This document shows positions 1,868 to 60,148 of a DNA stretch of 64,000 bases, piece by piece. The translations under genes and the position numbers were made by a program. The notes beneath the pieces are model-generated. The model did not search any database. It saw only the letters and a list, made by a program, of their open reading frames with translations, and had not been told where the DNA came from. Positions within the stretch are counted from its first letter, which is position 1. The number at the start of each line of letters is the position of its first letter. This DNA comes from Okamejei kenojei (lineage: Eukaryota): contig CM069144.1 of assembly GCA_035221665.1 (NCBI GenBank), forward strand, positions 56,110,001 through 56,174,000, given 5' to 3'.

Positions 1868-1961
1868 GGGTACACAAAAGGCTGGAGAAACTCAGCGGGT
1901 GCAGCAGCATCTAAGGAGCGAAGGAGATAGGCGACGTTTCGGGTCGAGACCCTTCTTCAGA
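1868..1961 (-). mobile_element. Penelope-derived short element with intact hammerhead-like core
   Basis: Minus strand 1960-1933 reads CTGAAGA-A-GGGT-CTCG-ACCC-GAAA-C-GTC; flanked by direct repeat TCAGATCAA (1859-1867 and 1957-1965). Confidence 0.8.
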
Positions 1962-3299
1962 TCAACGTTGGAGGATGACTTGTGGTTTCCATGTTTGACT
2001 TTGTGTGAGGACATTGGAAGGTGATGTCTAATTTACTCAATATTGCTGAAGGCTAATGGTCTTAACCTAAAACATGGGCCATAATGTCACCATACTTCTT
2101 CAAATGGGGACACAGAATACCCATTTGGCAGATGTGAAGGCTTAGATTTAAGCAACATCAGATGTCTATTATGTTTGATCTAATAATTCCTTGCAAGAGC
2201 GAATCAATAATTGATGACATTGTTGCTGGTGCATTTTTCAGAAGACATTCCTCTCTCAATGTTGCGAGAAATGTTTTTGAACTCTGCCTAAGTTAGGTAT
2301 AGGAAAAGAAGAATGCACTCACATAATGCATTCATTCTGCAAGCTAACCTGAAGCTGAAGTTTGATTGACTACTTGAATCAGTAAAGCCATTGCTACATC
2401 CTGACTGGAGTTCAGTTGCCCTGGGTGCAAGCTGACATTGGTTAATATGGAGCCCATATGTACTGTATGTGACCATGAAAACGGCTTAACTCAGTTACTT
2501 TTTTTAATTCCAATATAATTAATCTCGTCAAAATTAGATTATCTATTTAATCCAAGAGATTTAGGTAGTTGGAAACAGCTTTGCGCAAATGAAATGCGAT
2601 GCCAGGGTCAAACGTATCTTTAGATTTTTCATGAACTGTTTCTCTTAAGTTACACTGTATGTATGGCCATATCAATGGCTGACATGACACATCTTTTCTT
2701 GTGATATCTAATATTTTCTTTATCTGGAAATGGTTCTGAATTTTGAGATCATTTTTCACAGCCAACGTGCTGGTTTGTGGCAATGGTAGTGGATTTCGTC
2801 AGAGGAATTTGGCATTTATAGGGTTAAGAATATTTGTCGCTGGCCTGAAAGCTTATTACACCTTTCCCAGATAACCCTAAGCAGCATCTTAATGAATCCC
2901 ATATCGCAGGATTTACAGGAAGGATTTGTTAAGATGTCAATGTGCCAGAGTCTCTGAAATGGGCCAGCTGTCTCCTAATGGTGAACAGCTTGAAGTGGTC
3001 ACTTCTATTTCCATCTTACCAGCACAGCAGTCAACAGTAGTGTTGATTAAGCAGGCCAGAGTCCAAGGCCTGTGTAAAACATAACAAAGAGAGACTTCTA
3101 CCAGGGAAAAAAATAACAAACGTCTGCTGCAGAGTAGGCTGATGCCTAAGTGAGCCCTTTTTCACTCTGCTCTCTCTCTCCACAAAGTGTAATTCTAACA
3201 AGGCTAACACATCAAACGATTCAAGGGCAACTTGTTGTGAAGTCCCTTTGCCCTCATCCTTCATCAAAAGAAATAAAAAATCCCCCAAAAAATCTTACT

Positions 3300-3960
3300 T
3301 TTGAGCAGAATCTGTGTTGTGTGGTGTTCCACAATCACAGCAAAGCAAAGAGTTCACTGATTTGATTGGCCTCCCAGCAGCAGTTCAACCTCGGGAGAAA
3401 TGGCCTTTAACTGTATTCTGATTGAAATTTGTGTGTCCCTTCAGAGACTGTTTTCCTTAAAATGTAAAATTTATTCTTTCAGCAAAAATATGTGCCGTCT
3501 CAGCATGGTTTTTGGCGGTGGAGGGGGAGGGAGGGAGGGAGGGAAGTGAGGCGGGAGGAAGAGAGAGAAAAACTCACACAGATGGATAAACACAGGGAGA
3601 AGGAGAGCGAAAGAAAGATGACGTTTCTGCTGATTTGCTTCTGTCAGAAAAGTAGAAAATGTGAAGATAAATCCAATTCAAGACAATTGGGTGAGGAGGA
3701 AGTAAAGAGCAAAAGCCCACTAAGTGCAGCTTGTTTTTTTTTCAAGCAGGGAATCCTAGTTAAATCCCAGGATTTAGTCTGGGCCCATATTGGTTCCAGC
3801 AGAGCCTGGTAAAGTTAATTAAGGGTGAGTAATGGAGCATTTTCTCTCCAATGATATCTGTGACAGAACAAAGCTGTCTGAGTCTTGTGAAGCAAAATTT
3901 GAGCTGAATGAGTATTTATGTGATCAGCTCTGAAGGGGCAGCTCACGATAGAGCAGAGAT
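3300..3960. promoter_or_regulatory. Candidate conserved non-coding/enhancer-like block
   Basis: Non-repetitive, TE-free sequence around a purine-rich spacer, with TTAATTAA and TGACAG/TGTCAG motifs. Conservation not tested. Confidence 0.25.
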
Positions 3961-4819
3961 TCATCAATCAATCCTACTGCCGATGGAACACTGGGAAATT
4001 GGTCTATCAGGAAGACTATGCTACCCTCCCCCATTTTCCTTCTATTCAATCAACCCTTAGGCTGAAATGCTTCTCTTTAACTTTGCCTCCAAACACCTTA
4101 AGGGTCAGCATAAAAAAAAGTCCCATCAAGAGCTTGAAAGCCTATAACAACACTGAGACACGATGCCTGCATCGGATATTACTCTTCATTGATAACCTCT
4201 TTAAGTGTATGCATAAACAAAGCATTAATACCTGTCATCAAATTAATATATTCTTAACAGGGGATTATACTGTAGACCCAGCTGTCTAATAAGTCCAGCA
4301 TGAAACAAATTGAAATGTGGGGTGTGGAGGTGTAGATTCTTGATTAGGGTCCCACTCTGATCAAATACAGAGCACTCAGTGTCCGATTGTATGGGAGGAG
4401 GGAACCTAACGGAAGAAAATCACTTCAGCCACTTATTCATCCTTCAGTGATCAGCTTTGAGAACATCAGCAACCAAATGTATAAATTAAATTGAATGAAA
4501 AGGAGCATTCCAGGGTGGAACTACCATTAAATAAATAAATTCATCTGGACACGTTGGAGAATCCAGTATTTGGATTTTGAATATTTAGTCCTAGAACCTG
4601 TTTTTATTTCTCTCATTGTTCCTGCAATCCGACTTTTGTTTCCAATGATTCAATTCAATTCAAAGGTACTTTATTGTCGCATGTTGCTCCGGAGAGCGGC
4701 ATGCTTTGTTTTGCATGCAGCCCGGTAAAGTCATGTAGTATTCCTCACTTACGCAGTACACAAATGTCGCCGCGTTTGGCTCTGACAAAGTCACAAAAGT
4801 TTCATAAGGTACTGTCAAG

Positions 4820-6445: not shown

Positions 6446-6603
6446 AAGCTTTCTCTTCCAATTTTCACTTCTTCCTCTTGTTAAATTACCTCTCTCTCTG
6501 CACCACACATGCATTTCACCATGTTCCTAGATCTCTGAAAACCCATTGTTAGTTGGTAAACCACGGTGACTGGAATCCTCTTGTAATGCCTGTAGAGGCA
6601 ATA

Positions 6604-6790
6604 AAGACACAAAGTGCTGCAGTGAATCAACACGTCAGGCAGTATCTCTGGACAACATGATTAGGTGATGTTTCGGGCCAGAACCCTTCTTCAGGCTGAT
6701 TTTATGGGCGGGGAAAGAAAGCTAGAAGAGGGGAGAGGAGACCAAAGCATGGCAGGTAATAGGTAAACACAGGGATGGGAGGATTCTTTG
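6604..6790 (-). mobile_element. Penelope-derived pLTR fragment with hammerhead-like core
   Basis: Minus strand 6694-6667: CTGAAGA-A-GGGT-TCTG-GCCC-GAAA-C-ATC. Confidence 0.7.
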
Positions 6791-8961: not shown

Positions 8962-9394
8962 AGAATGGAACAACTGGGCTTGTATTGACTGGAATTCAGA
9001 AGGATGAGAGGGGATCTTATAGAAACATGTAAAATTATTAAGGGATTGGACAAGCTAGATGCAGGAAACATGTTCCCGGTGTTGTGGGAGTCCAGAACCA
9101 AGGATCACAGTTTAAGAATAAGAGGTAGGCCACTTAGAACTGAGATGAGGAAAAACTTTTTCACCCAGAGAGTTGTGAATTTGTGGAATTCTCTGCCTCA
9201 GAAGGCAGTGTAGGCCGATTCACTGGATGCATTCAAAAGAGAGTTAGATAGAGCTCTTAGGGATAGCGGAATCAAGGGATATGGGGAGAAGGCAGGAATG
9301 GGGTACTGATTGTGGATAATCAGCCATGATCACATTGAATGGCGGTGCTGGTTCGAAGGGCCGAATGGCCTACTCCTGCACCTATTTTCTATGT
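8962..9394 (+). mobile_element. CR1 LINE 3' fragment (relatively young)
   Basis: ORF 9004-9213 MRGDLIETCKIIKGLDKLDAGNMF...MRKNFFTQRVVNLWNSLPQKAV is the typical CR1 ORF2 C-terminus; 3'UTR ends GGCCTACTCCTGCACCTATTTTCTATG. Confidence 0.92.
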
Positions 9395-9867
9395 AACTAT
9401 GTATACAACCAGAGGTAAGTGCAAAAACACAGGCAACATCCAGCTTGGTGTAGATGGAGCATGTAAACTGTATGTCCATCCTCTTAGATTTAGGCAATGA
9501 ATAGGTTACCCTAGGCTGTGAAGACCTCAGGGGAGCCAGCGTACAAACAGTCTTGGTCATATTTACATTTTATTCTTGCTGGCCTGAGAGACGCAGGAAT
9601 GCTAAAGACCTTTAGGGCTCTTTTTGAGGATTGGTTGGATTTCCTGTCCCGTAGCCCCAAACCTGTCCTCAGCTCAACACAGGGTGTGAGTGATTTTCCA
9701 CATTAGCCAGGATTAGGAGCTGCCACTTGACTGCAGCAGTGCACCAGAAGTCTTTACTTGAAGGCTCTATGCCTGTAATTAATTCAACACTCATAATGGT
9801 CAGCCATCAGCTTTACAACTTGTTGAGCCGCTATCAAACTGTAATTTCCTTTTGTTCATTGACCGTA

Positions 9868-11220: not shown

Positions 11221-11352
11221 GATCTGAAGAAGGGTCCCAACCTGAAACGTCACCTGTCCATGTTCCCCAGAGATGCTGCTTGACCCTCTGAGTTACTCCA
11301 GAACTGTATGTCCTTTTGTGCAAACCAGCATCTGCAGTTCCTTGTATCTACA
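11221..11352 (+). mobile_element. Penelope-derived short element with hammerhead-like core
   Basis: 11224-11251 CTGAAGA-A-GGGT-CCCA-ACCT-GAAA-C-GTC followed by AGAGATGCTGCTTGACC...CAGCATCTGCAGTTCC. Confidence 0.78.
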
Positions 11353-11431
11353 TTGATTTGAAACGTACTGTTTGGGGTTGCAACAATAAACAACATAATT
11401 AAAATGCCAAATTATGGGAGTTTTATAGGAA

Positions 11432-11741
11432 GGGGCGGCAGAGTGGAGCAGCAGTATAGCTGCTGCCTTCCAGTGCCACAGACGAGGCTTCCATCCTGAA
11501 CACTGGTGCGGCCTGTACAAAGTTTGTACGTTCTCCCTGTGACCGCACGGGTTTCCGCTGGGTGCTACGGCTTCCTCCCACACTCCGACGATGTACAGGT
11601 TTGTAGGTTAATTGGCTTTTGTAAATTGTCCCTCGTATGTGGAAAATAACTAGAGTACAGGTGATCGATCGCTGGTCGGTGCGGGCTCGGTAGGCCGAAG
11701 TGCTTGTTTCCATGCTGTATCTCTAAACTAAACTAAACTAA
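11432..11741 (+). mobile_element. HE1-like tRNA-derived V-SINE, full length
   Basis: tRNA-like head, V-domain GGCTTCCTCCCAC, CR1-like 3' end and (CTAAA)n tail. Confidence 0.9.
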
Positions 11742-12432: not shown

Positions 12433-12609
12433 TCTCCATTTTGTCCCCCGATGGGGCATAATTCCAAATAGCATGAAACTCCTGCAACTCTATTTGACTA
12501 AAGTGTCTTGCTTCCATTTCAGAAGAACATATTTTACTCTAAGAGTATCATCATAATTTTCTCCAATTTGTTTAAGGTAGCTAGAAAATCAGGCAAAAAG
12601 TCAAAGAAA

Positions 12610-13520
12610 AAGTGGAGATGCAAGGGACCACAGATGCTGGAAACTGCCAGAGGAACTCAGCAGGTCAGGCAGCATCTGTGGAGGGAAATGGACAGATAGC
12701 ATTTTGGGACAGGATCCTTCTTCAGAATGATGGAGGAATGGGAAGGGTATGTGATGGAATGGAACGAGGAGAAGAAAAGGGATCGGACAAGAACAAGTAA
12801 GAGATAGGTGGGTCCATAGAGGGCGGATTGATTAGAAACATAGAAAATAGGTACAGGAGTAGGCCATTTGGCCCTTTGAGCCAGCATCGCCATTCAATAT
12901 GATATGACCATGGCTGATCATCCAAAATCAGTACTTCCTGCTCATCCAAAATCAGTACAAAATCTTCCTGCTTTTTCTGCATATTCCTCGATTCCTTGGT
13001 AGTAGGAATTGATAGGTAGAAGAATCAAGTATGGGGAGAGAAGGATGGAGATAGCAACCAAGACTGGAGGTGATAAGTGGAGAAGACAAAAAGGGTGCAA
13101 ATGGTGAAATCTGATAAGGAAGGAAGTTGGGGAGAGAAGTGTAGAACCAGAGGGAATAGAGGTGAAGAGAAAAAAAGGGATACAAAGAGTTTAGAGGGGT
13201 GGGAGATGAGTGGGTGGAGGTGACGGATGAAAGGACTGGTTACCATAGGCGGGGCAGTGGAAAGAAAGGTGCACAGAGACGGGGGAGGGAGAAGCTGGCT
13301 ATATGAGAGGGGGATGATCACCTGAAATTGGACTATTCAATGTTCATGCCATTCAATTGTAAGCTAGTCAAGCAGGATATGTGGCTCTGTACTTCAAGTT
13401 TGTTTGTGGCTTCACTCTGCCAGTGGAGGAGACCAAGGACACACAGATGGTATGGGAATGGGAAGGGGAATTAATATAGCTGGCAACCAGGAGCTCCAGC
13501 TGGCTCTGGCGGACACAATG
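12610..13520 (-). mobile_element. Decayed Penelope-like element 3' part, interrupted by a CR1 tail (~12833-13000)
   Basis: pLTR unit at 12620-12725, purine-rich spacer, and 13320-13520 resembling the endonuclease end at 29040-29230. Inserted AGAAACATAGAAAATAGGTACAGGAGTAGGCC is a CR1 3' end. Confidence 0.7.
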
Positions 13521-16061: not shown

Positions 16062-16820
16062 TTTTAGCGTTAAGTTTAATGTTGTCACGTTTACTGAGGT
16101 ACAGTGAATAGTTTTGTTTTGCATTCTGTCTAATCAAATCAGATAATGCCACATATAAATGCACTCAAGACAAACTCAAGTATGCAGATGACACCACCAT
16201 AGTGGGCTGGATACCAAATAATGATGAGGCAGAGAACAGGAAGGAGATTGAGAACCTCATAACCTGGTGCCAAGACAACAACCTCTCCCTTAATGTCAGC
16301 AAGACAAAGGAGATTGTGATCGATTTTAGGAAGCAAAGAGGTGCAAACAACTCCATGTGCATTGAGGGCTCCAAAGTAGAGATGGTTAAAAGCTCCAAGT
16401 TCTTAGAAATAAATATCACTGCCAATTTGTCCTGGACCAGGCACGTCAAAGTAATGGCCAAGAAAGCACATGAATCCCTCTACTTCGTCAGAAGGCTTAG
16501 AAAGTTCGGCATTTCCACAACAACCCTCACCAACTTCCACAGATGTGCTATAGAAAGCATTTTAGCGGAATGCACCATAGCATGGTTTGGGAACAGCTCC
16601 ATCTCAGAGTGCTAGGAATGGCAGAGAGTTGTTGACGTAGCTCAGACCAGCACGCAAACCGAACTCCCTTCCATCTACACTTCACGCTGCCTCGGCAAGG
16701 CTGCCGACGTAATCAAGGACTAGTCTCATCTCGGTCACTCCTTCTTCTCCCCTCTCCCATCAGGCAAGAGGTACGGATTCAGGGATAATTCCTTTCCAGC
16801 CATTATCAGGCAACTGAAAC
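16062..16820. mobile_element. Rex1/Babar-like LINE fragment; RT part on +, 3' tail inverted on -
   Basis: In-frame KYADDTTIVG (YADD at 16181-16192) continues into ORF 16202-16615 WCQDNNLSLNVSKTKEIVIDFRK...LYFVRRLRKFG. 16062-16175 is a minus-strand LINE 3' tail. Confidence 0.85.
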
Positions 16821-19169: not shown

Positions 19170-19496
19170 GGGCGGTCACGGTGGCGCAGCGGTAGAGTTG
19201 CTGCCTTCCAGCGAATGCAGCGCCGGAGACTCGGGTTTGATCCCAACAACGGGTGCTGTCTGCACAGAGTTTGTACGTTCTCCCCATGACCTGCATGGGT
19301 TTTGTCCGGGTTCTTCGGTTTCCTCCCACAGTCCAAAGACGTACAGGTTTGTAGGTTAATTGCCTTGGTAAATGCAAAACTTGTCCCAGGTGGGTGTAGG
19401 ATCATGTTAATGTGCGGGGATCGCTGGTCGGCGTGGACCCGGTGGGCCAAAGGGCCTGTTTCCGCGCTGTATCTCTGAACTAAACTAAACTAAACT
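19170..19496 (+). mobile_element. HE1-like V-SINE, full length, young
   Basis: GGTGGCGCAGCGGTAGAG (A box), GGTTTGATCCC (B box), CGGTTTCCTCCCAC, (CTAAA)n tail; CpGs retained. Confidence 0.92.
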
Positions 19497-23000: not shown

Positions 23001-24647
23001 CAAACCACATGAGCTGTTTTTTAAATATTTTTGTAGTATTTAGGAACTTGCTGTGTGTAAATGCCTGTTAAGTCTGAATATCAGGGGTGACTACAATATA
23101 AGGCTAATTGCCTGTGAAATGCTTTTGAACAAAGATGCTTTTATATTTCCATATTGTTCTTATGTGGTGTTTGGTGATATTTTTCGTGGATTATTGATGA
23201 ATTTGAAGTCAATGGGTGCAGAATTAATAGTGATTAATACTGATTTTTTTTTAATGAGGAAAAAGTTGATAATTCCTAAAAGTATGAAACTTTTTCTTGC
23301 ATTTGGAATGGGTAAATGTGGATAAAGTTGTTGTGTTCAGAATAACTTTGGTGTCAAGTTATTGCTAGCTTTGGAGTTATTTCATTTGTAGATGCCGTTC
23401 AGAAATGTGGAGGCATTTGGATCAGTTTGACATGGAAGTCCTTAAAATTGGTAAAGTTTGATTATGTAATTGGTCCCTAAATATTTTGGTAAGTTGTTAA
23501 TACTATGTTTTGATCAATTGATAATGAAACAATTACCCAAGGAGTTTGATTAGTTTGGTTTGGTAATCTGCCTGGAACACATCCAACCTTTAAACTTGGT
23601 ATCATCTTGGAAATATATTAATGATTGTTCTCCTGTTTGCTATTGTCAGTCAGGTGCTGGAAAATTAAAATTAAAAAAAGTTTTAAAATGCTATAAACGT
23701 GCACCTGGTCCATCCCCATGTTTGTGAATAGAACTTATTTAGAGATTGCAATTTTTTTTTTGGTTGCAAAAGTTGTTGATAAATCCATAGCTTTAAAGTA
23801 CTTATCTAAGTTTTAAATAATTTGCTGTCAAATTCTGCGCTTTTCATTTGAAACTCATGCGATTGAATTTAACGACAAAGAAGTCTTTGTGAATATCTTG
23901 ATGATTAGAATCTTCTCCAGTGTTTAACTTTGACAGTTAAATTGTTTATTTTTCCCAATGATTAAATGAGGTAAGTAATCATTATAGAAAAATGAGAATC
24001 GCTCCTCCTTGATGTGGATGTAATCAGATTGGTGTAACTGTTGACACTAATGGGAGACGACATTTGTGGAATAGTTCCCCCTGAGGCCCATACTGTAATT
24101 GTTAGGCCAATTAGAATAACTGGTTGTGGTTTCACTTAATAGAAAACAAGATTTCTGTTCATTTCAAATGTTCAAATCAGTGAACCAGTCTGCTAGGTGG
24201 AATAAAGCTTAAGGATAAAATTAGCAGCAGAAGACATGGTTGTCAATAAGTGTTACAGGTAACAAAATCAACGTTTCCTAGATTAAAATGTTGCATCAGA
24301 ACTTTATTCAGATTTTGGCCCCATCAGACGATTAACAAGCAACTTCTGTGGTTTAAAAAAAACTTGCATTGGTATAGATTTGCTCAACCACACAACATAT
24401 ATAAACACGCTTCTAAGTCAACTAATTACCTTTAAAACGTAACCACTCTGGTGTTGTAGACAAATGCTTCAGAGAAATAGTAAATGTTCAAGTAAATTGC
24501 AATGTTATAAATAGCAATGGTTATCTACAAAGCTCTTCCATGTAACTGGAAGGGGAGATGATAGTGCAAGTTAGCCGCTCTGAAACCAAGCACTTCCAAT
24601 GATGCATCAGTCCCTCCGCATTGTTCCTGCAGGTCAGATATTGAGCA

Positions 24648-24775
24648 TGTGTGGGAAGGAACTGCAGATGCTGGTTTACATTGAAGATAGACACAAAATG
24701 CTGGAGTAATTCAGCAGGACAGGCAGCATCTCTGGAGAGAAGGAAAGGGTGATGGTTTGGGTCCTTCTTCAGAAA
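24648..24775 (-). mobile_element. Penelope-derived short element (core damaged)
   Basis: GGAAGGAACTGCAGATGCTGGTTTAC...GACACAAAATGCTGGAGTAA...CCTTCTTCAGA. Confidence 0.75.
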
Positions 24776-26374: not shown

Positions 26375-26679
26375 CAGCACGGTGGACCGGCAGTAACGCT
26401 GCTGCCTTGCAGCGCCAGAGACCTGACTTCGATCCTGACTAAATGTGTTGTCTGTACGGAGTTTGTTCGTTCTCTGTGACCTGCGTGGGTTTTCTCCGGG
26501 TGCTCTGCTTTCCTCTCACATTCCAAAGGCATGCAGGTTTGTAGGTTAATTGGCTTGGTAAAATTGTAAACTGTCCCCAGTGTGTAGGATAGTGTTAGTG
26601 TAAGGGGATCGCTGGTCGGCGTGAGCTCAGTAGGCCAAAGGGCCTGTTTCCACGCTGTATCTTTAAACTACACTAAACT
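26375..26679 (+). mobile_element. HE1-like V-SINE
   Basis: Full body with TTCGATCCTGAC B box and CTAAA tail. Confidence 0.9.
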
Positions 26680-28138: not shown

Positions 28139-28854
28139 AAGGCAAACATCAGGGATGCTGTCGTTGTCAAAACTAATAAAATAATTTCAACAAAGACTAC
28201 CAGCCAGGTGAATTAGAGACCCTGAGCAATATGTTTTGTTGAAATGCAGAAGGCAGACTGCACACTCTGATGAGTGGAATGGGATAACAAGGCAGTGAAT
28301 GGAGAATTAAGTCGTAGGACTTGGGATTAATTCCATCTGACTGATTAAATTATCATGGTCTGCCTTGAATAAGTTTACGATTAAATATATCTCAGCACGT
28401 GGCTTGTATACAGCATGAGCTTCCTATAGTACATTTTAAGCTGCAATGGCAGATGAGTTCTGAGGATAATTGCTAGAATATTATATTTTTATGATTATTG
28501 GACACAAAAGTCAGTACCATTTTGCATGTTCAGATGTACAGCTAACTCCTGCTACTGTATATGTTTTGACAAACCACGTAGTAAAATTATTCTTCCCATC
28601 GAGGTACAGATTCTGTGCTAAGCTGTTCTTGACAATAATGGTGCTTCTATCACATGTAGTGAGGGGGTGGGTGGAGGTCAAGGAGGAAGAACATTTGTTA
28701 TAACAAGCCTGAGATTCTCAGGAGCCTTTCATTCCCAGATGCCAGCACATGTTAAGCTATTGTGTTTGTATGTATCGGTAATATTGATTTTTGGATGTGC
28801 ATGCATATTTTGCAAAATACTTTATATTATTACAGTACAGAATATGGTAAACCT

Positions 28855-29790
28855 TGGAGAAACTCAGCGGGTGAGGCAGCATCTATGGAGAGGAGGAATA
28901 GGCGACGTTTCGGGTCGATTCCCTTCTTCAGACTGATGTCGGGGGGGGGGGGCGGGAAAAAGAAAGGAAGTAGGCGGAGGCAGTAAGACTGTGGGAGAAT
29001 TGGGAAGGGGGAGGGGAAGGAGGGAGAAAGCAAAGGCTATCTAAAATGAGAGAAGTCAATGTTCATACCGCTGGGGTGTAAACGACCCAAGCGAAATATG
29101 AGGTGCTGTTCCTCCAATTTGCGCTGGGCCTCACTCTGACAATGGAGGAGGCCCAGGACAGAAAGGTCAGATTGGGAATGGGAGGGGAGTTGAAGTGCTG
29201 AGCAACCGGGTGATCAGGCTGGTTAACACGGACTGAGCGGAGGTGTTCAGCGAAACGATCGTCGAGCTTGCGCTTGGTCTCACCGATGTAGAGAAGTTGA
29301 CACTTAGAACAGCGGATGCAATAGATGAGGTTGGAGGGGGTGCAGGTGAACCTCTGCCTCACCTGGAAAGACTGACTGGGTCCTTGATGGAGTTGAGGGG
29401 GGGGGTAAAGGGACAAGTGTTGCATTTCCTGCGGTTGCAGGGGAAAGTACCCGGGGAGGGGGTGGTTTGGGTGGGAAGGGACGAAATGACCAGTGAGTTA
29501 TGGAGGGAGCGGTCTCTGCGGAAAGCAGAAAGGGGAGGAGATGCGTAGATGTGGCCAGTGATGGGATCCTGTTGGAGATCCACTACTGGCCACATCTCTA
29601 GCCATTGTCCATCCACCTCACCTCTATCCAGGTATCAATTGCCAGGTTTTGTCCCTGCCCCACCTCAGTTCCAGCTTTCCCCCACTGCTCCAATCAATCC
29701 CAAAAGGTACCGAGCCAAATCATCAACTATCCGTGTTCTCCAGATATCCTGCCTGACCCACTGAGTTACTCCTGTACTTTGTGTCTTTTT
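28855..29790 (-). mobile_element. Penelope-like retroelement (GIY-YIG endonuclease C-terminus, pLTR, inverted 5' pLTR)
   Basis: Frameshifted ORFs AFRRDRSLHNSLV...PGTFPCNRRKCNTC and FTCTPSNLIYCIRCSKCQLLYIGETKRKLDDRFAEH...PVAQHFN; hammerhead-like core at 28904-28931; + strand pLTR at ~29600-29790. Confidence 0.92.
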
Positions 29791-30009
29791 TTGAGTAATC
29801 CTGACCCATTAAATTATTGGGAATGTGTTAACTTGGACACATGAGAGCCAATTTTCAATAGATGCTCACAGTACTAGTTTAAGACAACACAGTACTAGTT
29901 TAAGCCCATTTTGCTCTCCTGAATTGACAGAGCTCCCTCTTATGCTTTGTGCTGGTGTATGTTTTCAAGATGCACTTACTTTTTTTGTCTTTTGATTTGG
30001 TACGTCTTA

Positions 30010-30344: not shown

Positions 30345-30874
30345 TTACTGGAGGCTGTGAAGCCAGACTGTGACATTATACGCATATCATAAGGCACTGC
30401 AGATGAACTGGTTTTCAGACACATTGTACATAGAGCAAAAGAAACTAAACAAAATCCAAATGCAAAAATAATAAAACATGCCAAACGCCTTTGCCCTGGA
30501 GTAATGTGAGTGAACAAAAGCTTAGGTTTGTTACTGTAAGATAATTTTTTTTTAAGCATTGTTTGACATTTCAAGCCAAATCGGTCTTCATTTGCAATGC
30601 AAAAACAGAAAATACAAAAGCCCCCACAATGTCAGGAGGGAGATCTGGTCAATTTTTCAGGGCAAGGAATTCTATCAGAATCTAAAGTAAGAAAACAAGC
30701 GGGTTTTAAGTAGTCAAAAAGGGGGAAGACAGAGGGAATATTTGTGATAGGATACAAACTAAAGATGTCAAAGTAGCCATTACTATAGAAACAGGCAGTT
30801 TCAGAGAAACTAAACAGAGAAAAGAACACCTTGAAATGGGAATATCTAGCAACATATGTCAAGAGATGAAAAAC

Positions 30875-31125
30875 TGTGAAGGAAGTAACTGCAGGTGCTG
30901 GTTTACACTGAAGATAGACACAAAATACTGGAGTAGCTCAGCGGGACAGGCAGCATCTCTGGATAGAATGGGTGATGTTTCGGGTCGAGACCCTTCTTCT
31001 GAAACGTGTAGGAAGGAACTGCAGATGCCAGTGAAATGTGTAGGAAGGAACTGCAGATATTGGTTCTTGAAGGGTCTCGACCCGAAATGTCACCCGTTCT
31101 ATCCAGAGACGCTGCCTATCCTGTT
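30875..31125. mobile_element. Inverted pair of Penelope-derived pLTR units
   Basis: ~30944-30997 is the reverse complement of ~31069-31120; the spacer holds two copies of TGAAA(C/T)GTGTAGGAAGGAACTGCAGAT. Confidence 0.85.
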
Positions 31126-33323: not shown

Positions 33324-34064
33324 TAAAGCAATCCCCAAAACGTTTAACCCAAGCCTCAGAAGATCTCATGAACCTGTTCACTGCCAAGTTTTTTTTCCAC
33401 TATTTGCCAAGATCCCGGGTATACTCTGGAGTGGCACTGAATCGGTTAAATCTGGTGTTTTCTTGATAATCTTCCTTATATTATGTAAATAAATTGCAAT
33501 TTAGAGTCAAAATATGCCAACCTAGCAGCAGACCCGGGTTGAAGTTTCACAAGGCTTTATGCTCTTAAAATACCTGAATAACAAAAGGGAGAAGACTTTT
33601 GTCCCATCAATCCAGCTCGACTTGAAACAAAAAAATGCAGAGAAGAATCCAAACACAATTCCAGCTTCCACTTTCTCAGGATTATGTGGTTGAATAATCT
33701 GGAAAAGTGGAGAGCATAGCTTGTTCACTTTGCTGACTGTTGCAACATGATACCATTTGATTTCTTCACCAGTTTACAGATCTATACTCCAACAAAATCC
33801 TTGCAAAATTTGCTTTTGTGTAAAACTTTGCAACACTATCTTTCTTGACATTTGATATTTATTTCCCTAGAAATTAAGCTAGAAGATACTGGAAATAATC
33901 CGTCGGTCAAGTAGCACCTAGTGAAGGAAACTCAGTTGGCATTTCAAATTAATGATCTGAACTGTCATCACAAGTGCAAACGATAAAGTATTTAAATTGT
34001 ATAATCAGGATTAACATTCCTCTGCCATTTGCAACTGCGTAGGTGTTAGAAGTGAGTGTATATT

Positions 34065-36114: not shown

Positions 36115-36440
36115 TTGAGCCTGAAGAAAGGTTCCGACCTGAAACATAACCTATCCATGTTCTCATTGTACCTCTGTTTGCTTTGTTGTCACCTTCTCTT
36201 AGCAGACAATGGTCTATTCTACATTTTCCTTGATCTCCATCTCTTTTGATCGCTTACACTTCCTTATCTCTGTAACATCCTCCTATCCTGATGATCAGTC
36301 TGAAGAAGGGACTCAACCGAAAACGTCAACCATTCCTTCTATCCAAAGATGCTACCTGTCCCGCTAAGTTACTCCACCATTTTGTGTCTATCTTTTCTAG
36401 AGATGCGTTGAGTTACTCCAGCACTTTGTGTCTATCCTTA
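36115..36440 (+). mobile_element. Tandem Penelope-derived pLTR units with two hammerhead-like cores
   Basis: Cores start at 36121 (CTGAAGA-A-AGGT-TCCG-ACCT-GAAAC) and 36300 (CTGAAGAAGGG...GAAAACGTC), 179 bp apart. Confidence 0.72.
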
Positions 36441-38562
36441 TCTTGCGTTGGCCTTGGGACCCAAACATGTGCAAAAAGGGTTTTAACATTTTCTCAGCTT
36501 TGCTCCATTAATGGATTTCCTTTTATGTTCAGCACCAACTTAACCAGAGTTAATGCACACTTTGATGCAATATGTAACTTGCAAACTGCTTTGTGTTGCT
36601 CTTTAGTTCAATGTTTAAATGCAGGAAATAAATAATCTGCTACTTTTTAATAACTTTCTGTAATAACCCTCTGTTACAAATCCAATAATAGAACTGACCA
36701 TTTTTGCACATCACTCATTATAACCAAGCACCAATAGGGTTTTTTTTTTTTTTTTAAATCAGTGCTTCATTGCATTGAAGAATGAGAGGAGCGCAATCAT
36801 TACTAAAGTGTTCCATCTGAGCACAAATATTTTGTCCTGTGACATTTACTGAAGAAGCTCAACTAAATCTAAATTGAACTTTTTGATAAAAATATTTTAA
36901 CTGCTCTGCTCATATCTCTCATTATCACTTTGCATTTTGTTTTTGCGAGATCTTTCATGTGTAATGTAACTATGTAATATATATTTAATTTAATCACCAA
37001 GCATGCAAACAAAGTATTTCCTAAGTATGAATCTATCTGTGGTCTCCTGGGATGCTACCTGACCCACAGAGTTATTCTACTGATTTGTCTTTTTTTGTAA
37101 ATTACCACCTGCAGTTCCTTGTTTCAACAAACTCAATCCTTTCTGTTTGTTTTTAAGGCTAAGCTTTTAGAAAATTTCCAAAGTGCAAAGAAGAAGCCAC
37201 CACATTTGTAACATTTACCTTTGAGTGGAAGAGAGGTCATTTGCAGTAACGAAGATGTGTCGCTCTGCAAAATTGTGTTTAGACCAGAGTGGACAGCACT
37301 ACCTTCTGTATCTACAATGTCAGATTCAGCATCTTGTCCTGGTCAATCCAATGAATCGGGGATCCAGATGGTTGAATGATAATTTTGAGCAGCTTATGGA
37401 AGTGAAAAATAATACCTTCCAGATAGTCATGCTGAACACTCCCCTGATGTAGCAATGCAATATGTGTCATTAGCCTCGCCCTTACTTTCAAAGAAGGTCA
37501 GGCCCATTGTACCCTTTGGATACCCCCAGATCCACATTGTCCAAATTAAATAGAAGAAGACCAGACTGATTTGTGTTTCACTTTAATGACTGAGCAAGGT
37601 TCACACTGATCCGTGGAAAATAACTCACTCTGGGATACATCAGAGATCCCCAAATGTGCCAGCATTTCAAAAAGCACGTTCGACCCGCTTCACTACCAAC
37701 CAAGAAAGGATACCTATGATGTTCCATCAGTCAAAGCAGTCATTTACATGGTGGCAAGCAGAGCATTACATTTTAGACCATGTTTGTGCTCACAGATAGA
37801 CACGTCTGTTTATAATCCAGTGCAAGTTATTTATCAGCTCAAACAGTCAAGTAACAAGTCAAACTCTTGTATTACCTTGTGAGTTACAATAAAAGATTTG
37901 AATAGTTCTTTATTGTTTGCAACCTGGACTACAGACTATAAAGTTCAGGCTGTGATGTTTTACATTTTGCAAAACCCAGTACCTCGTCACACACTGCTGC
38001 AGATTGCCAAAAGTTAATTATTACTCAAATTCAATGCATATAATGATCGTGAACCCTATCCTTTCAAACCTTAACTGTGTGACCTCATTAATTGTAGCAA
38101 GTTATTTTCAAGATGATGCTTGCATCCATCCACAAAGTAGTTTGCCCTCTCCATTAATTTGTATGACATGCCCCCACCAGAATGAAATGTCCTTTGCTTG
38201 CAGACCAAATTTGTTTTGTCAGTATTGTTGTGAGCATTGTTCACATGACATTGATTTTCAGTTTCAGAGTGAGTGCTTAAGATCTCTCTTATAAATAGCA
38301 TGGAATGCAGTGTTGCTGCAAATGGTGGGGAAATCAAGGACATCTCAAAGGTACTGTATATAGAACACCATCTAGAGCTCAGGTTAGCTGTTCCAGCTGT
38401 TTTCCTGCTGTAATAACTGTAGAAATAAACAAATATCCTTCACACAAATATTCAATTCCATGATTGCCTCCATTACCTCCTTTCATTCTCCCTGCCTTGG
38501 TCAGTGCAGGTCCAGATTCATTTGGATCCCATTGAGCTACCCAGTACCATATATGTTGTGGG

Positions 38563-38656
38563 TAGACAAAAGTGCTGGAGAAACTCAGCGGGTGCGGCAG
38601 CATCTATGGAGCGAAGGAAATGGGCAAAACGTTTCGGGCCGAAACCCTTCTTCAGA
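38563..38656 (-). mobile_element. Penelope-derived short element with hammerhead-like core
   Basis: Minus strand 38655-38628: CTGAAGA-A-GGGT-TTCG-GCCC-GAAA-C-GTT. Confidence 0.8.
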
Positions 38657-38780
38657 TTCCGTTGAATCGTTGAATTTATTCATATGCACAATGCCAGTGA
38701 GTTGTTTGTATAATGAAAATCTTACTTGCAACGGCATCACAGGCATGTAGACTTGGATGACACGCAAAAGCGTAATTTGC

Positions 38781-42440: not shown

Positions 42441-42451
42441 TAATAGTCTGA

Positions 42452-42743
42452 AGGAGCAGCACAGCGCTGCAGCAGTTGAGTTGCTGACTTACAGTGCCAG
42501 AGTCCCAGGTTCGATCCTAACAATGGGAGCTGTCCACACAGAGTTTGTGCATTCTTTCTGTGACCGCGTGGGTTTTCTCCGGGTGCTCCAGTTTCTTCTC
42601 ACATCCCCAAGGTGTACACGGTTTGTAGGTTAATTGGCTGCTGTAAAAATTGTAATTTGTCCCTAGTGTTTAGGGCGATCGCTGGTCGGTGTGGAATCGG
42701 CGGGCCAAAAGGCTTGTTTCCGCGCTGTATCCCTGAAGTCTAA
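42452..42743 (+). mobile_element. HE1-like V-SINE
   Basis: GGTTCGATCC B box, GTGGGTTTTCTCCGGGTGCTCC, CR1-like tail. Confidence 0.85.
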
Positions 42744-47380: not shown

Positions 47381-47619
47381 TTCACACAGAGAGTGGTGAA
47401 TCTGTGGAATTCTCTGCCACAGAAGGTAATTGAGGCCAGTTCGTTGGCCATATTTAAGAGGGAGTTGGATGTGGCCCTTGTGGCTGAAGGGATCAGGGGG
47501 TATGGAGAGAAGGCGGGTACAGGATATTGAGTTGGATGATCAGCCATGATCATATTGAATGGCGGTGCAGGCTCGAAGGGCCGAATGGCCTACTCCTGCA
47601 CCTAATTTCTATGTTTCTA
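47381..47619 (+). mobile_element. CR1 LINE 3' fragment (young)
   Basis: Near-identical to 39110-39342; ends TTTCTATGTTTCTA. Confidence 0.9.
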
Positions 47620-48842
47620 TTCAAAAGTTGCTCTTCTGGTTGTTTCATTCCACCATCCACCCATTTATGAAACTTGTGTCCCTCACTCTGCACTCCCTCC
47701 TGTATTAGCCATTGAATGGTGTGACATTTAATTGTTTCCTGAGCAGAAATGAACAAAACAACACAGAAAATTAAGTTGTGTCCATTTCCATTCATGTCAC
47801 CTTTTAACAATGTGCTGGGTGTTAATTGTTGCCAAAGAACAGTGCCTAAAATTTGTTATTACAACTGTTGCATATTATTCCTTTGTTTTTACTTTTAACG
47901 GGAGATGTTAAGAACCTTAAATTTACTTTACACTCAAAATCGTTTTTCTCCCTGTATTTTCTCTCTTTTGCCCGTCTAATCTTGTTAAACTCCCTTTAAT
48001 TGTCTTTCTGTACTTGATTCAGACAGTCCAATTTATACTTCCTCCTCAGTCCTTGTGCTGTTAATTTCACAATCCAGTCTCTTGTGCTCTTCTCTTGGGT
48101 CTTGGAGGCAATTTTCATCATTGTGCCCCAGCCAGTTTGCACTTTCAAAAACTTGCCACACGAAACAAGTTAAACTAAACTTAAAATAAACCAAAATTCA
48201 ACTAAGTCAAGATGTGTGAAGTTAACAGCAAATACCCTTTTATTTCCTAGTACCACATTACACTGGCCAATATTTAACACCCACACCAAATGCTGCACAT
48301 TTGCAATAATACATATGGGCAGATAATTGTAATCTTACCTAGACTTACAACGAGTAGTTAACTGACTTGAATTATACTGCCAATTCCGAGCTGTAGGATG
48401 GCCACCCATATGGAGTCTTATGTGTGTATTGAGCTCAGCTATGTTTGTGGCTAACCTTGAGAGGTTGAGAGGTAAGTTTAAAAAGTGCCCAACGGATCGC
48501 TTAGCCAAAGAAATATCGCAGTCAAGGAAAAATAATTGGAGATGGCCACCTAGTAAGAGGAAAATAAAGTTTTTTATCTCCCCATTTCTACTTGTCAGAT
48601 CAAGGCCTATTTCCTGAGGTACATGGCCAAACCCCATTTTACATTGTCAAAAGAATGGCTAATAGATTTGTGTTAAGCGTTAATGTATAAACTGAATTCC
48701 ACCTTGGGAAATATTGAGTTGCAATTGTTGAATGTTTCACCATTGCTTGCCAGCACTAATGTCCTTCTCACAGCCAAATGAAGTTGATATACACCAGAGT
48801 TACTTCAGTAAAGATAGCTTTACAGAATATAATACTCAAAAA

Positions 48843-49870
48843 CAGACACAAAGTGCTAGAGTAACTCGGTGGATCAGGCAGCATCTCCAGAGAACATGGA
48901 TAGGTGACATTTCGGGTCGGGTCCCAGCTTTTGACTGAATGGAAGGTGGAGGGGGAGAAAGCCGGAAGAAAGATGGGACAGGACAAAGCATAGCAGGTAA
49001 TAGGTGGATACCGGTGATGGGGGAGGGGGGTGGTTTGACAGGCAGATGATTGGACAAGGGTCAGAGATGAAAAGACAGAAGGCAAGTGAGACAAAATGAT
49101 TGACAAGTTGTAGATTGTGAAGCTCGAGCAATGAATGTAGAGGGAAGGGAAGGGGGAAATGAATTAAATGCAAGTCCAAGTGGGACACAGGGGAGAGACA
49201 TGGGGAAAAGGGGGGGGGGGGGGAAAGAAGGAGGTAGCTTTGTAGTTACCTACAATCAATAATGTTGGATTTTAAACTACCCATGTGGAATATGAAGTGC
49301 TGTTCCTCCAGATTGCATGTGGCCTCAATCTGGCAATGGAGGAGGCCCAGGACAAAAGGTCGGTATGGAAATGGCAAGGAGTGTTAAAATGGTTAGCAAC
49401 AAGGAGAAACAACAGACTTTGGCAGACCACGCATTGGTGCTCAGCACAATTGTCACCGAGTCTACGTTTAGTCTCGTTGATGTCCAGGTGTCTACATCTG
49501 GAACACCGGATGCAGTGGATGAGGTGCACGTGAAGCCCCTGTCTTACCGAGAGGGACCGCTGGTCTCCCTGGATGGATGTGGGGGAGGAGGTGTAGGTAC
49601 AGGTGTTACATCTCTTCTGCCTGCAGGGCTAAGTACTTGGGGAGGGGCTGGTTTTGGTGGGAAGGGATGAGTGAACCAAGTAGTCGCAGAGGGAGGGGGT
49701 CTCTTGAAAAAAAGCTGGAAAGGAGTGAAGTTGGGAAGATGTGACTGGTGGTGGGATCATGGTGGAAGTGATGGGCATGTCAGGAGATGATGTATCAGAT
49801 GTGGAGGCTGGTGGGGTGAAAGGTGAGGACCAGGAGAACTCTATCCTGGTTCCAACACTCACTTTCCTTG
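48843..49870 (-). mobile_element. Decayed Penelope-like retroelement
   Basis: ORF 49272-49529 LIHCIRCSRCRHLDINETKRRLGDNCAEH...VANHFN is a decayed GIY-YIG; pLTR unit at 48843-48940. Confidence 0.85.
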
Positions 49871-50130: not shown

Positions 50131-52780
50131 CCCAGTTCATCAGGTTCTCTTGAGCTAAAATGGTCTTTGCAAAGGATAACAAATGGTGTCCTTTCACTTG
50201 ATATAGTAAGAATTGCTGGTGCAAATCAATCATTAACAAGATTTGCAATTAAAAGAATCTGCATTGTTATATCCTGGTGGCCGGCTTATTAAACAACGCA
50301 AGGAATGGTGAACAGAGCAAGGAGTGGCAACATCGCATGGACTGTATAAAGCCCCAGTGAGATTCCCCTGTTACTATGCCCAGGCACACAGACACAGGGA
50401 AAATGTATCAAGTGTGACCCTGGGCTGGCTTTTTTGAGCTACATTGCCACGGTTGAATGAGTTTGCTCGGAACCATTGAAGTCTCCTACTGCTGAAGAGT
50501 GAAGGCGGGGATGCTGATACAATGGCGATCTTTCTCACAGTCGGTGGGCTTGGGGTGGGGGTGGAGGTTGAGGTGGTGGTCTCATGGAGTACGTGGCTGG
50601 GGGGCTGGGGGGGGGGGGGGGGGGGTCCCACACAAGCATCGAGCCCTGCGGGGATCGAGAACTCGACGGTCAAGAAGGTGATTGACGGAAACCCAATGTC
50701 CCCCCACGTAAAAGGTGGGCTGGAGGTAGCCCGCATTATGGGTCTCATGGCAACCCATAATGATTTGGATGAAGAACCGAGAAGTGGGATAAAGTAGGAC
50801 AGCTCCCCACTCCCACCCCCTCCTCCAGCTAGCAAGATACAACGGCGCGAATGGCCTTCGTTGTGCTGTAACCCGCTGCGATTCTCCTCAGCCCTCAGAG
50901 GGGTCTGGATACCTTTGGAGCTTCAGTCAAGGGGGCATGAGTTGACAAACCCTCACAAGTGTCCGAGCGGGGGGGGGGGGGGGTCACTTTCTCCCAGTAT
51001 GGGCTGGGTTTGAACCCAAATGGCCCTGTACTAACCTCGTGGTGCTTTCCAATCGTGAACCAAGTAACAGAGGGTATGAAAGTACCACCCGCGGGGCCGT
51101 GAAGGAGCGAACGCTCTCCTGATTGTGGTATTCGCGAGTAATAGCTCGACAGCAATGCTCAGCGACGCAGGCTCTCAAAAGGCTTTTTTTTTGTTGTTTG
51201 TTTTAAAAAAAAGTGGGACTTTCACAGAATTACATTCGAGGAACAAGAGGAACTAGAGTGTATCAACGTGAGTCCAGCCCTCGGCGGAGAATAATGGTGT
51301 TTCTATAAGTGATCGGTTTACTTGAAGCACTGTTTCCTGGAATTGAGACAGTGCGAATCCTCGTTCAATCACCCAGCTTTAAATGGAGAAAGTAAAAATA
51401 CGCTGTGATTTGTGTGTTCACTTAACAATCCAGTCCCCTCCCAATTCTCCCCTCCCCGGCTCAAAGTCTTGCTTGAATAACAGAAATGATAGATGTAAAA
51501 TATTCATCGTCCAACGAAACGGGGAGGGGAATGGGAAGTTAATGTGCCAAAGCCACATCAAATATAAATAGGATGACCTGACAATCTAACCGTTGCTAAT
51601 GATATTAAAAATCTGTCAGGCTCCGGTATACTGACAGTGGAGGGGTTGTTCTCTGGAGTTAGGAAGCGAGCTCGCTTTCTGCACAACACAATATTCTCTT
51701 AGTGCGTCTCCGGTGTAAAATAATCAAGCTTTCTGCTTCATTAAATGCGAAGAGAGGAACTGCTATGCGTCTGCCTAAAGGACAGTCTCCCGTCTTGGTT
51801 TCCTGTTTACAGTACACCGCAAGAAGGAGGCAGAATAATCGGTGCTAATTCTAAAAAACACACCATTCGGTCCCTCAAAGGCATGGAATTTGTAGTAAAT
51901 CAGCCCGCAGCAACCCTGGCAAGCAGGGCTGACCCCCAACAAATGAAAATAATCAAAAGTAATTAGAGGCGTGCTGGACTGCTCCTCAGAGATCTGTGCT
52001 GGAGAATAAACATGCCTTAGTGTGCAGAAACTCTGCAAAGACCTATGTCTGAGCTGTTAGGTGCCCTGACCTTGTCCATATAAAGATGTGATTTATGAAG
52101 TGCAGGGCATAACGGCAAGGCTTCTGTCTTTTTCAAGAAAACTGTTTTACTGTGGCGGAATGTAACAGTCTCTCGGCTCTGTGCCTCAATCTACGAAAGA
52201 GCTGAAAGTCGTTCTATATAATCCTACCTGGCAAGCAGAAACGTTATTTCAGGGTGGAAAAATCAATGAATAGACTACTTCGATAAAGGAAATATTAAAA
52301 GCAATATGCATACCTCGCCCTTCATTACCCCAAAGCGCCCTGACACATGTGTTATCTTTTCTCGCTATATGTTGGACACCTTCTAAACACTTGCACGTAA
52401 AATGGTCTTCCCTGCAACATCACGGTCGTAACTCTCAATATTATTCAGTAGTCGTTTCCAATATAATTCGTTTCAATTATCCGCTAAGCATCTTGAAGAC
52501 TATTAATTCGTTTCAAGTTGGCACCGCAGTGCAGCGGGAGTTTGTCTCTTCTCACTCCGATCCTGGGGTTATTTTATTGGCTTTTGTGACACCTCGTGTA
52601 GACATTAGTTAAAAAAAAATGAAATTTAAATAAGGAGGAACAGATTTTGAAAATGTTTAACTCATTACTAGATAAAGCTTTTTTTTTAATTGATTGTGCT
52701 AGATGTAGTCATCAGCCTTCGATGACAACTAGCTGTAGATCAGAGATTCCAGACTCCTACATAAAATATTTATCCATTAT

Positions 52781-57598: not shown

Positions 57599-59729
57599 GT
57601 AACTCTATAAGCGGTACATTATGAGTTGTGGAACACTGGCACTCTTTGCATCGTTCATCATGAGTGGTGTTTAAAACACATTTTTTAATTGAGACAGCAG
57701 ATTTCCAGTCACCGCTGTTTGGCTGCACCAAGAGATTCCATTAATTAAACGCCGGTACACATGTAAATAATTAAGGCAAAGAGACGGTAATTACACAATA
57801 CAGTCCTCAACTTTTACACACATGGCCCATATAATTGCGCGTACACTTACTCTTAGTTCAATATCAGATCTTTGCGTCCACAGCCACACAAAACCTATAT
57901 ATATATATATATTAACAAATATAATGTGTTATTCAAATTTTCATTTTAAAAGAGGAAAACGAATCAAATGTTAACCTTATTCTAGCCTGAAAGCAAATGT
58001 TTTTTGTTTTACTTTCGTTTTATTAATATAAAAAATCCACGTTATGTAAATATTATCAAATATATTGACCTCAAGATTTGTCATCTGCCCCGAGACGGAC
58101 ATGCCGTGACTATTATCCGTCAGTGCCGTCTCAGCATAACTTTCGTGTAGAGGTGGCCGGTGGATAAAGAGTGGTCGGACGCTTACATTCCTCTATTCTC
58201 ACTGTCAAACCCTCACACTTTGGTTTTTGATCATTTCAAGATTTTCTTTTCATGGCAACGTTTCTAAAAGCACCGAGTCGCCGCGTGTGAGGGAAGCGAG
58301 CGGTCTTGTCAACTGGCGCTAGGAGGTGGGTTGGTTAACATTTCCGCATGAGCCGCAGGTCGCTGCTTTCCTTCGCCGGCTCCGATTAACAAATCACCTC
58401 TTTTGCACGGCAAATGAAAAATATCCTCTTGAGGCGAACTGCGGAAAGTTTGCGAGAAAACAGAGGTGTGTGTGTGTGTGGGGGTGTGTGGGGGTGGGTG
58501 GGGGGGGGGGGGGGGGGGTAGCTTTTAGTTCCCTTTCTGGTTGAACTGAGACCATTCATCTTACACAAATCACTCGTTGAGGATGCGTGAAAATTAACAC
58601 GGGAACCGCGCCCGCTGAAAGTCGGGATGAGAGGACAAGATCAGTCCCAGGAGACCCAGGACACGTTGGTGTGCGTCGCTGGATCCACTCATCCGAGTTT
58701 CATCAAATCGCACACGCATCAAAGGCGAAATGAAGTGGCTACAATTAAGAGACCAACCATTCGAATTGCAGAGGAGAAATAAATACACTGGCATTCCTAA
58801 TACACGAGCATTCGAAATCACATTCAGTATCTATTCAAATACACATTGTACACAGAGGCAGAATCACAAACTCAGTCACATACACACTACACAGAGAGGT
58901 CTACAAGGGCCCAGGAACGCACACGCTATAATTCTAGAGAAACAAACGTGAATGTAGTTAGCAGGTGTTTGACGGCACACACGCACATACTTTAATAAAC
59001 AGCCTTAATCCCAGCGTCATGTGATATCCATAATTATTTCTTATTTAATAAGTGAGTGAAAGGTGACGAGGAATCTGATCAAATCCAGTGTCTTTAGGAA
59101 GGTGCAAATGGCCGCAGTGACAGTCCCACTATTTCTACAGGTGGTCGGTGATGTTTGGGGTCGGGATGTGTATTTTGTGGATAGCGTCATGAAGAGAGCG
59201 CACGTTTACTGCCGTTTTCGTTTACAACCTCGTTGCCTCTTCAGAATTTGGTCGACACTGTTTTGTGTGGTTCTAACCGACCAGCTACTGGAAGGGAAAT
59301 ACTACTTTTGGGAGAACACGGAGGTGTATTTTCTACTGGCACTCATTGGATTCGATTCCGGACAGCCAGTAGCCACGAGATATCTCTTGGTACTTTTACC
59401 ACGGGGCCGGGAGAGCAACAGGTGGAGTTAGTGGGGGTGAGCAAAGGCGGGGAACTCACACCTGTTTCTCGAAAATCGGCTCGCCTCCTGGAGTGGGCTG
59501 TTACACCTGGTGGAATTGGAAATATTTGATTTTCAGGATTTCATACATTTAAATTGCGAAGAAGGTTTATCGTCAGCTTTGGCGTATTTTCTTTTGGATG
59601 GGAAGAAGTGAATACCATTTTGTGGTTTTGAAGATTATGGATGAAACTAATTGTCTCTGCTGTCCCAAGCAAAATCTTCCCCGAGGAAAATAATTAAATT
59701 GCCAGTGTTGTTTTCAAAATTGCAACCCT

Positions 59730-59890
59730 GGACACCATTTAAAGGACATTTGAACAGGCACATGGATAGGATAGGTTTAGAAGGGTGTGAGCCAAGCACA
59801 GGCAGGCGGGAGTAGTATAGATGGAGCATTTTGCTCGGCGTGGGCAAATAGGGCCGATCGGCCTGTTTCCTATACTGTATCTCTATGACT
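59730..59890 (+). mobile_element. CR1 3' fragment
   Basis: CATTTAAAGGACATTTGAACAGGCACATGGATAGG...GGCCTGTTTCC..ACTGTATCTCTATGACT. Confidence 0.8.
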
Positions 59891-59972
59891 AATGTGCCTT
59901 TCAATTAATCATAAGTCAAGAGTCATAATAGATACTCATAAAATGCATTACTAGATATCAACCCATAACCCA

Positions 59973-60148
59973 GGGAACTGCAGATGCTGGAATCTGGAGC
60001 AAATGTGCTGGAATACTCAATGGGACAGGCAGCATCGGGGGAAGGAATGGATAGGCGATGTTTTGGCTCGGGGGCCTTCTTCAGACTGCTCCTGACCCGA
60101 AACGTCGCCTACCCATAACCTCCTCAGATGCTGCCTGGCCCACTGAGA
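59973..60148. mobile_element. Inverted pair of Penelope-derived pLTR units
   Basis: Minus unit to CCTTCTTCAGAC (~60087), then plus unit GACCCGAAACGTCGCCTA...AGATGCTGCCTGGCCCACTGAG. Confidence 0.75.

Follow-up and report, generated by a model that had tools for sequence, protein, structure and literature searches.

Abundant hammerhead-bearing units in the skate Okamejei kenojei as probable pseudo-LTR pieces of a Penelope-like retrotransposon

Hammerhead-bearing units in the window and their parent element

The window, that is the whole stretch of 64,000 nucleotides (nt) analysed here, belongs to the skate Okamejei kenojei (CM069144.1, 56,110,001-56,174,000), and an original prediction had placed about 15 dispersed Penelope-derived units with a minimal hammerhead ribozyme core between its positions 1868 and 60148. 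With very high confidence, these repeat units are pieces of the pseudo-long terminal repeat (pLTR) of a Penelope-like element (PLE), a retrotransposon, and decay neutrally, while their ends suggest that most of them were copied from uncut element RNA.

An iterated nhmmer profile built from seven window copies gave 20 matches in the window and 0 in five controls (one reversed and four shuffled sequences). Eighteen matches, one of them weak (E=0.008), lay inside 1868-60148, so that the predicted number of units, and the density of about one per 4 kb, were right or slightly low. The units and the coding fragments associated with them were distributed as follows.

1..113 (+): pLTR unit truncated by the window edge, retaining GAAA and what follows, with tail (profile match outside the span first described)
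176..258 (+): old degraded unit, core lost (profile match, also outside that span)
1855..1963 (-): solo unit, intact core at 1933-1960 (stem II 4/4, ACGU, GUC), helix I of 1 base pair (bp)
6602..6698 (-): unit with core at 6667-6694 and stem II 4/4; ACGT lost (ACAT)
11221..11344 (+): tailed unit whose core, at 11224-11251, is intact
12590..12729 (-): tailed unit without G12 and with a broken stem II
24647..24774 (-): tailed unit in which stem II has a deletion
28849..28935 (-): pLTR unit at the 3' end of a 5'-truncated element; its core, at 28904-28931, has a 3/4 stem II
28936..29040 (-): pyrimidine-rich 3' untranslated region (UTR) between endonuclease stop and unit, CAGT at its end
29040..29560 (-): frameshifted end of a GIY-YIG endonuclease with a C-x4-C-x2-C linker (PCNRRKCNTC), Penelope-like open reading frame (ORF)
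29703..29798 (+): degraded unit in the opposite orientation to the endonuclease fragment, of which it is likely the inverted 5' partner
30865..31122 (both strands): complex of a unit at 30865-31002 (-), two pieces of tail only at 31002-31065 (-) and an inverted unit at 31068-31122 (+), both cores being damaged
33874..33945 (-): weak old fragment (E=0.008)
36118..36164 (+): 5' half of a unit that keeps the core boxes and has lost ACGT; A-U pair at 10.1-11.1, triplet AUA
36296..36438 (+): unit whose stem II is broken, preceded by a piece of pyrimidine-rich 3' UTR; short duplicated 3' part
37025..37124 (+): degraded 3' part of a unit, without core
38560..38658 (-): solo unit, core at 38628-38655, stem II 4/4 (U-G), ACGU, GUU triplet
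48835..48936 (-): unit whose 5' core is destroyed, lying downstream of the second and older endonuclease fragment
49272..49628 (-): degraded endonuclease fragment, same type of cysteine linker (PCRQKRCNTC), no Pfam match
59974..60148 (both strands): head-to-head pair, both cores damaged; 59974-60088 (-) with tail and 60078-60148 (+)

The six motifs that had been singled out all exist where and as described, stems included. The claim that about 15 units carry the core did not hold, only 6 having exact CTGANGA and GAAA boxes with the 13-nt spacer of the family. One further copy, at 36300, has both boxes exact but a broken stem of 12 nt, and a seventh row with boxes and spacer, at 35879, was discarded as a chance occurrence unrelated to the family. 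Core, 4-bp stem II, ACGU and NUH triplet were all kept in only three window copies (1960-, 11224+ and 38655-). A Rfam scan of the window returned no hammerhead family at E<=10 (0/17 rows).

The Penelope-like origin of the units was supported by their linkage to an ORF encoding a reverse transcriptase (RT) and an endonuclease (EN). In the window, the core at 28904-28931 sits on the 3' side of a fragment matching GIY-YIG (Pfam PF01541, E=4.8e-5), and this endonuclease-unit stretch shares 88-91% identity over about 700 nt with 29 other loci of the same order. A unit lay directly 3' of the endonuclease in 30/30 loci, an order that is partly due to construction as the query contained the unit. RT motifs and the C-x4-C-x2-C linker were found by walking upstream in the same copies, where the RT corresponded to Atlas RVT_1/HTH_animal clusters at 0.95; a Pfam scan of the decayed RT frame of one locus (L008) gave no match. 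The ORF thus has the architecture of an EN+ PLE, with RT followed by a C-terminal GIY-YIG domain, and a CX2-5CxxC linker stands between the two in 4/4 translated loci as well as in the window. A looser linker expression, matching in 29/30 loci, was discarded because it can also match the CxxC before YIG. Element length is roughly 3.6 kb (locus L103).

At the other end of the element, the match of a single model extended from the core region as far as the ORF start in 17 of 30 ORF-linked loci, picked by a query with the ORF 5' end. The core box CUGAAGA is numbered here from its first base, C3, and the ORF starts about 165 nt after C3 in these 17 loci. Among the remaining ones, 12 begin at model columns 31-162 and one has no such match. 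A second preferred zone of 5' boundaries was observed in or just after the tail, 11/30 ORF-bearing copies beginning at columns 92-162. An open frame leading from the core CUG into the ORF, present in one subfamily and seemingly shifted in another (by eye), was dropped. At least four different upstream UTR families run into the same unit (by eye). Since the unit is found after the GIY-YIG gene and also runs on into the ORF start, it represents the pLTR of the element.

Abundance, anatomy and decay of the hammerhead motif

Copies were counted in 100 arbitrary 10-kb stretches (999.5 kb in total). At a threshold of >=30 bits, 394 copies were obtained, with 0 in a reversed control on the first 60 stretches, which extrapolates to about 1.1 million in a genome of 2.76 Gb, the size assumed for all extrapolations. 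The expected very high-copy reservoir is therefore real as far as number is concerned. One exact 28-mer was present 48,215 times genome-wide (control 0). A generic minimal-hammerhead descriptor matched 43 times in the 999.5 kb and never in two controls (about 119,000 extrapolated); a second hammerhead family was not found in this sample, as the only one of the 43 matches outside called units still belonged to the same family.

Conservation was examined in the 152 copies covering the motif, out of 259 matches in the first 60 stretches. Their majority sequence displays the CUGANGA and GAAA boxes, the NUH triplet and a 4-bp stem II, with an extra A after A9 in 140/149 copies, G10.1-C11.1 in 86/145, and ACGU as the majority helix III palindrome, eroding by CpG change. 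This supports the minimal type I anatomy that had been proposed. Few copies remain whole: both boxes survive in 53 of the 152, boxes plus stem II in 32, these plus ACGU in 22, and all of these plus G10.1-C11.1 in 16. Helix I had been suspected to be weak, and it had no more than 2 bp in 36 of 42 descriptor-passing copies (0, 1, 2, 3 and 4 bp in 5, 4, 27, 4 and 2 copies, respectively). The pair 2.2-1.2 of this helix gave p=0.04, uncorrected, among 10 pairs tested.

Selection for ribozyme function does not act on the dispersed copies, and the core decays like its flank. Departure from the majority, per cell, was 6.4% in the non-CpG core, 7.8% in the non-diagnostic flank and 13.1% in non-CpG stem II, while G12, a CpG site, was altered in 40/147 copies, at the level expected of CpG. 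Stem II pairing equalled that of column shuffles in the 152 copies (p 0.27-0.69). Genome-wide, the comparison of compensatory with non-compensatory double changes at two stem II pairs (G-C to A-U) gave 235 and 455 against 295 and 345, with an odds ratio of 1.05 (confidence interval 0.84-1.31). The impression of a conserved stem II that stays paired while its loop varies was thus not borne out, in the 152 copies or genome-wide; it stems from the copies chosen and from common ancestry, and the G-U and A-U variants of the stem from CpG decay and chance. Stem II covariation no greater than under neutrality, together with a missing stem I, had been named in the original prediction as arguing against active ribozymes, and in silico there was no covariation beyond neutral expectation and most intact copies had a stem I of at most 2 bp.

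Folding predictions, which leave tertiary contacts and protein out of account, gave a median stem II probability of 0.02 in 35 intact natural copies. The 5' half of the core was mostly paired to a downstream pyrimidine stretch in 23 of these, and by this prediction stem II loses out to a rival hairpin. Forced active dimers had energies of -11.5 and -12.7 kcal/mol against minimum free energies of -19.9 and -21.3 kcal/mol, values that omit helix I and are indicative only. Of the 92 close pairs among the 394 copies, 68 were head-to-head and only 16 tandem, mostly damaged; with the rival hairpin predicted, a reservoir of dimer-competent ribozymes looks unlikely. Tandem hammerhead arrays, the mark of retrozymes, were not found in the 999.5-kb sample, the rest of the genome not having been searched for arrays.

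Insertion record and the sharp 5' edge

Target-site duplications (TSDs) of 8-22 bp flank the copies. Scored with controls at two cut-offs in 131 isolated copies, they were found in 19 at scores >=10 (0 controls) and in 36 at scores >=8 (5 controls), and 30 of these 36 copies end 0-7 nt before C3. The 3' ends fall into two clusters about 35 nt apart, corresponding to whether the PLE tail is present or lacking. The core start is reached by 242 copies: 72 of them have an inverted partner, 2 sit at the edges of stretches and 168 are solo. No upstream sequence is shared by 124 of the 168 solo copies, in which T precedes the core at -1 in 93, G at -2 in 91, A at -3 in 76 and C at -4 in 50, the composition reaching background by -7. 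Among the 17 ORF-reaching copies, 7 stop at this 5' edge too (by eye). Not one of the 394 copies begins at the cleavage site (profile columns 34-35), and for 5 the first column is 36 or 37; to judge from this record, cut RNA would rarely or never have served as template. Head-to-head pairs combine a long and a short arm in 51/68 cases (p=2.5e-5) and are enclosed as a whole by a single TSD in 27/67 (2 controls), and sharing one TSD makes them single insertion events. Inverted 5' copies and an optional tail, both features of EN+ PLEs, are therefore present.

The mechanism that we favour, with moderate confidence for the whole of it including a start site at the ribozyme edge read from DNA ends, takes most units to be complete complementary DNAs (cDNAs) of the first 95-140 nt of uncut element RNA. 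The RT-endonuclease of the element would nick the target and prime cDNA synthesis internally, at either of two sites lying about 90 or 130 nt downstream of the core, and synthesis would run to the RNA 5' end. The sharp 5' edge at the core would likely exist because the element RNA starts there, probably at an A located three bases ahead of it. All upstream families seen carry an initiator-like TCAGTCT or CCAGTCT at this place. Where both target ends prime, two cDNAs could be joined head-to-head, usually one with and one without tail. The hammerhead itself would likely be kept by selection only in source elements; it is predicted to be folded off by the rival hairpin, and cutting would need an element protein or a partner RNA.

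Several observations weigh against this account. The start site is read from DNA ends only, and the excess of cap-derived G falls short of significance (12/27, p=0.06). Other templates exist, as 44/168 solo and 10/17 ORF-linked copies reach further upstream. Ninety-five of 131 isolated copies have no TSD at score >=8, and in the window only one copy attains that score, with a match falling within the partner arm. Constraint on core and stem II in source elements shows only as a weak sign, the p value for subfamily-diagnostic sites (0/19 in core and stem II against 14/58 downstream, p=0.016) being post hoc and hinging on a 12% threshold. The clade of the element is likely Neptune, an assignment drawn from the cysteine linker, which is common to Nematis. 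Finally, Drosophila virilis Penelope starts about 120 nt further upstream and not at the ribozyme edge, its start being placed 46 nt ahead of a 75-nt intron whose end is at helix I (PMC2377424, PMC4209133).

As the main alternative, the same element and the same neutral decay could also yield the 5' edge if it were a structural stop of the RT, either because the cDNA snaps back once it contains the whole 5' arm of the rival hairpin or because a protein-bound fold blocks the enzyme. The predicted hairpin base at -1 to -3, where ends cluster, fits such a stop, as do the pairing of the core 5' half with downstream sequence in 23/35 folded copies, several inversion junctions within self-complementary parts of the motif (by eye) and the non-significant cap-G excess. 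We nevertheless hold it to be rather unlikely, since the initiator-like heptamers recur in all upstream families seen and since hairpin details vary between subfamilies while the boundary is apparently constant.

Two further explanations were weighed. The CAG before the core could be a 3' splice site, as in D. virilis Penelope, with splicing or back-splicing from the donor-like AAG/GTATGT at the ORF start giving ORF-less tandem or circular RNAs and hammerhead dimers. A pyrimidine tract with CAG occurs in all upstream families, the 6 genomic matches to the junction include 3, from 2 loci, that reproduce the join exactly, and one contig joint in run X1, probably DNA, lies within 1 nt of the positions. 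Six matches among about a million copies are equally accounted for by AG microhomology, the exact join would still yield a 2-bp helix I, and ends at -2 and -3 stay unexplained, so that this reading appears most improbable. Very improbable, too, is that many dispersed copies are maintained, cleavage-competent ribozymes cutting host transcripts as dimers. The 43 descriptor-passing motifs and the 48,215 identical 28-mers speak for it, some of which may cut if transcribed, as does a 2-bp helix I variant in D. virilis (PMC4209133). It is opposed by the lack of covariation, by stem II changing more than the flank, by the short helix I, by the scarcity of intact tandem pairs and by the published minimal hammerhead monomers, without cleavage, and dimers, with little (PMC4209133).

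Joints of the kind expected from splicing were observed in rare copies (L182, L183 and L184/L185, around position 1500-1520), in which the pLTR end that immediately precedes the ORF start runs straight into the start of the next unit, the joint coinciding with the predicted splice junction or lying no more than 1 nt away. A donor at the endonuclease end, which would lengthen helix I, was rejected, with one contig joint each in runs X1 and X2 but 0 genomic joins.

Returning to the copying of uncut RNA, its fullest form remains tentative: the approximately one million insertions could be a fossil map of RNA 5' ends, recording a start three bases before the hammerhead, a ribozyme kept inactive by the rival hairpin during copying of the RNA, and a dimeric RT-endonuclease priming from both target ends at two different internal sites, with the element by itself turning out in masses solo pLTRs resembling short interspersed elements (SINEs) along with asymmetric inverted pairs.

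The window holds other repeats. A decayed RT fragment of a long interspersed element (LINE) at 16112-16615 (+), with a weak RVT_1 match and an ALKBH8_N-like C-terminal part, is unrelated to the PLE. A second abundant dispersed repeat of 150-300 nt, SINE-like and with inverted partners, lies at 11429-11732, 19287-19484, 26477-26672, 27402-27718, 38791-39050, 42450-42742 and 60378-60703. A third, with a conserved hairpin-like end (9160-9399, 12828-12903, 32512-32562, 39110-39342 and 47381-47624), presumably consists of LINE 3' ends. Near-perfect inverted repeats at 28029-28120 and 30009-30345 are likely miniature inverted-repeat transposable elements; a mir-1 model stayed below threshold on both strands, and 65-nt arms are 95% complementary. 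Open frames at 50480-50797 (+) and 59060-59529 (+) resemble possible host exons and have no Pfam match. A Pfam scan for host genes, covering 10 of 67 window ORFs, gave no match, and 3 more ORFs were scanned separately.

Relation to known Penelope-like elements and retrozymes

The motif and its host element were already known, so that the original prediction adds mainly scale. The papers listed by a literature search included no account of the skate family or of a 5' boundary at the ribozyme, although the supplements of PMC4209133 and PMC11167929 and of the Li preprint may hold one. Beyond this, shared TSDs, tail asymmetry and the sharp 5' edge lend support, in vivo, to the internal priming at two sites that had been seen in vitro for anole Poseidon, and the insertion record reduces the question of PLE hammerhead function to one that can be tested.

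Minimal type I hammerheads sit in the pLTRs of metazoan PLEs, including fish Xena, Poseidon and Neptune (PMC4209133), and the skate units are a member of this group by core, helix II, palindrome and position, as judged from their sequence. With the motifs of that study they share the core boxes, the unpaired nucleotide between 9 and 10.1, G10.1-C11.1, the palindromic 15.2-16.2 and the pLTR location, as well as the prevalence of single motifs from truncated elements and of opposite-strand pairs. Skate helix II has 4 bp whereas that of Schistosoma has 7-8, and helix I, with 2 bp, lies towards the short extreme, the typical length being 4-5 bp and that of D. virilis 2 bp (PMC4209133). The skate displays one uniform family where the systems of PMC4209133 are many, and about 119,000 extrapolated motifs compared with about 4,000 in coelacanth and about 9,000 in Xenopus.

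Like the EN+ PLEs Neptune and Nematis (PMC8557442), which that source gives as marked by the CX2-5CxxC linker, the skate element combines RT, linker and C-terminal GIY-YIG with partial tandems, an inverted 5' copy and an optional 30-40 bp tail at one end. Neither clear TSDs of 8-22 bp nor a 5' boundary predominating at the ribozyme edge figure among the Neptune and Nematis features in the part of PMC8557442 used here. For anole Poseidon PAc, internal two-site priming, an uncut RNA substrate and protein-assisted cleavage have been demonstrated (PMC11167929). The mechanism favoured for the skate resembles it in two internal priming sites matching the tail, in the nicking and extension of both strands and in the use of uncut RNA, PAc having no reads at the cut site just as skate insertions do not start there. 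The PAc ORF starts within the hammerhead, that of the skate about 165 nt downstream, and the clades differ.

Non-LTR retrozymes (PMC7229834; 10.64898/2026.07.22.740005) are likewise short, PLE-related, non-coding hammerhead units. They form tandem arrays, with canonical hammerheads in PMC7229834, whereas skate units are mostly solo or head-to-head and carry the minimal motif. Axolotl, with 126,247 hammerhead motifs in these sources, comes near the extrapolated skate count. The axolotl genome is much larger.

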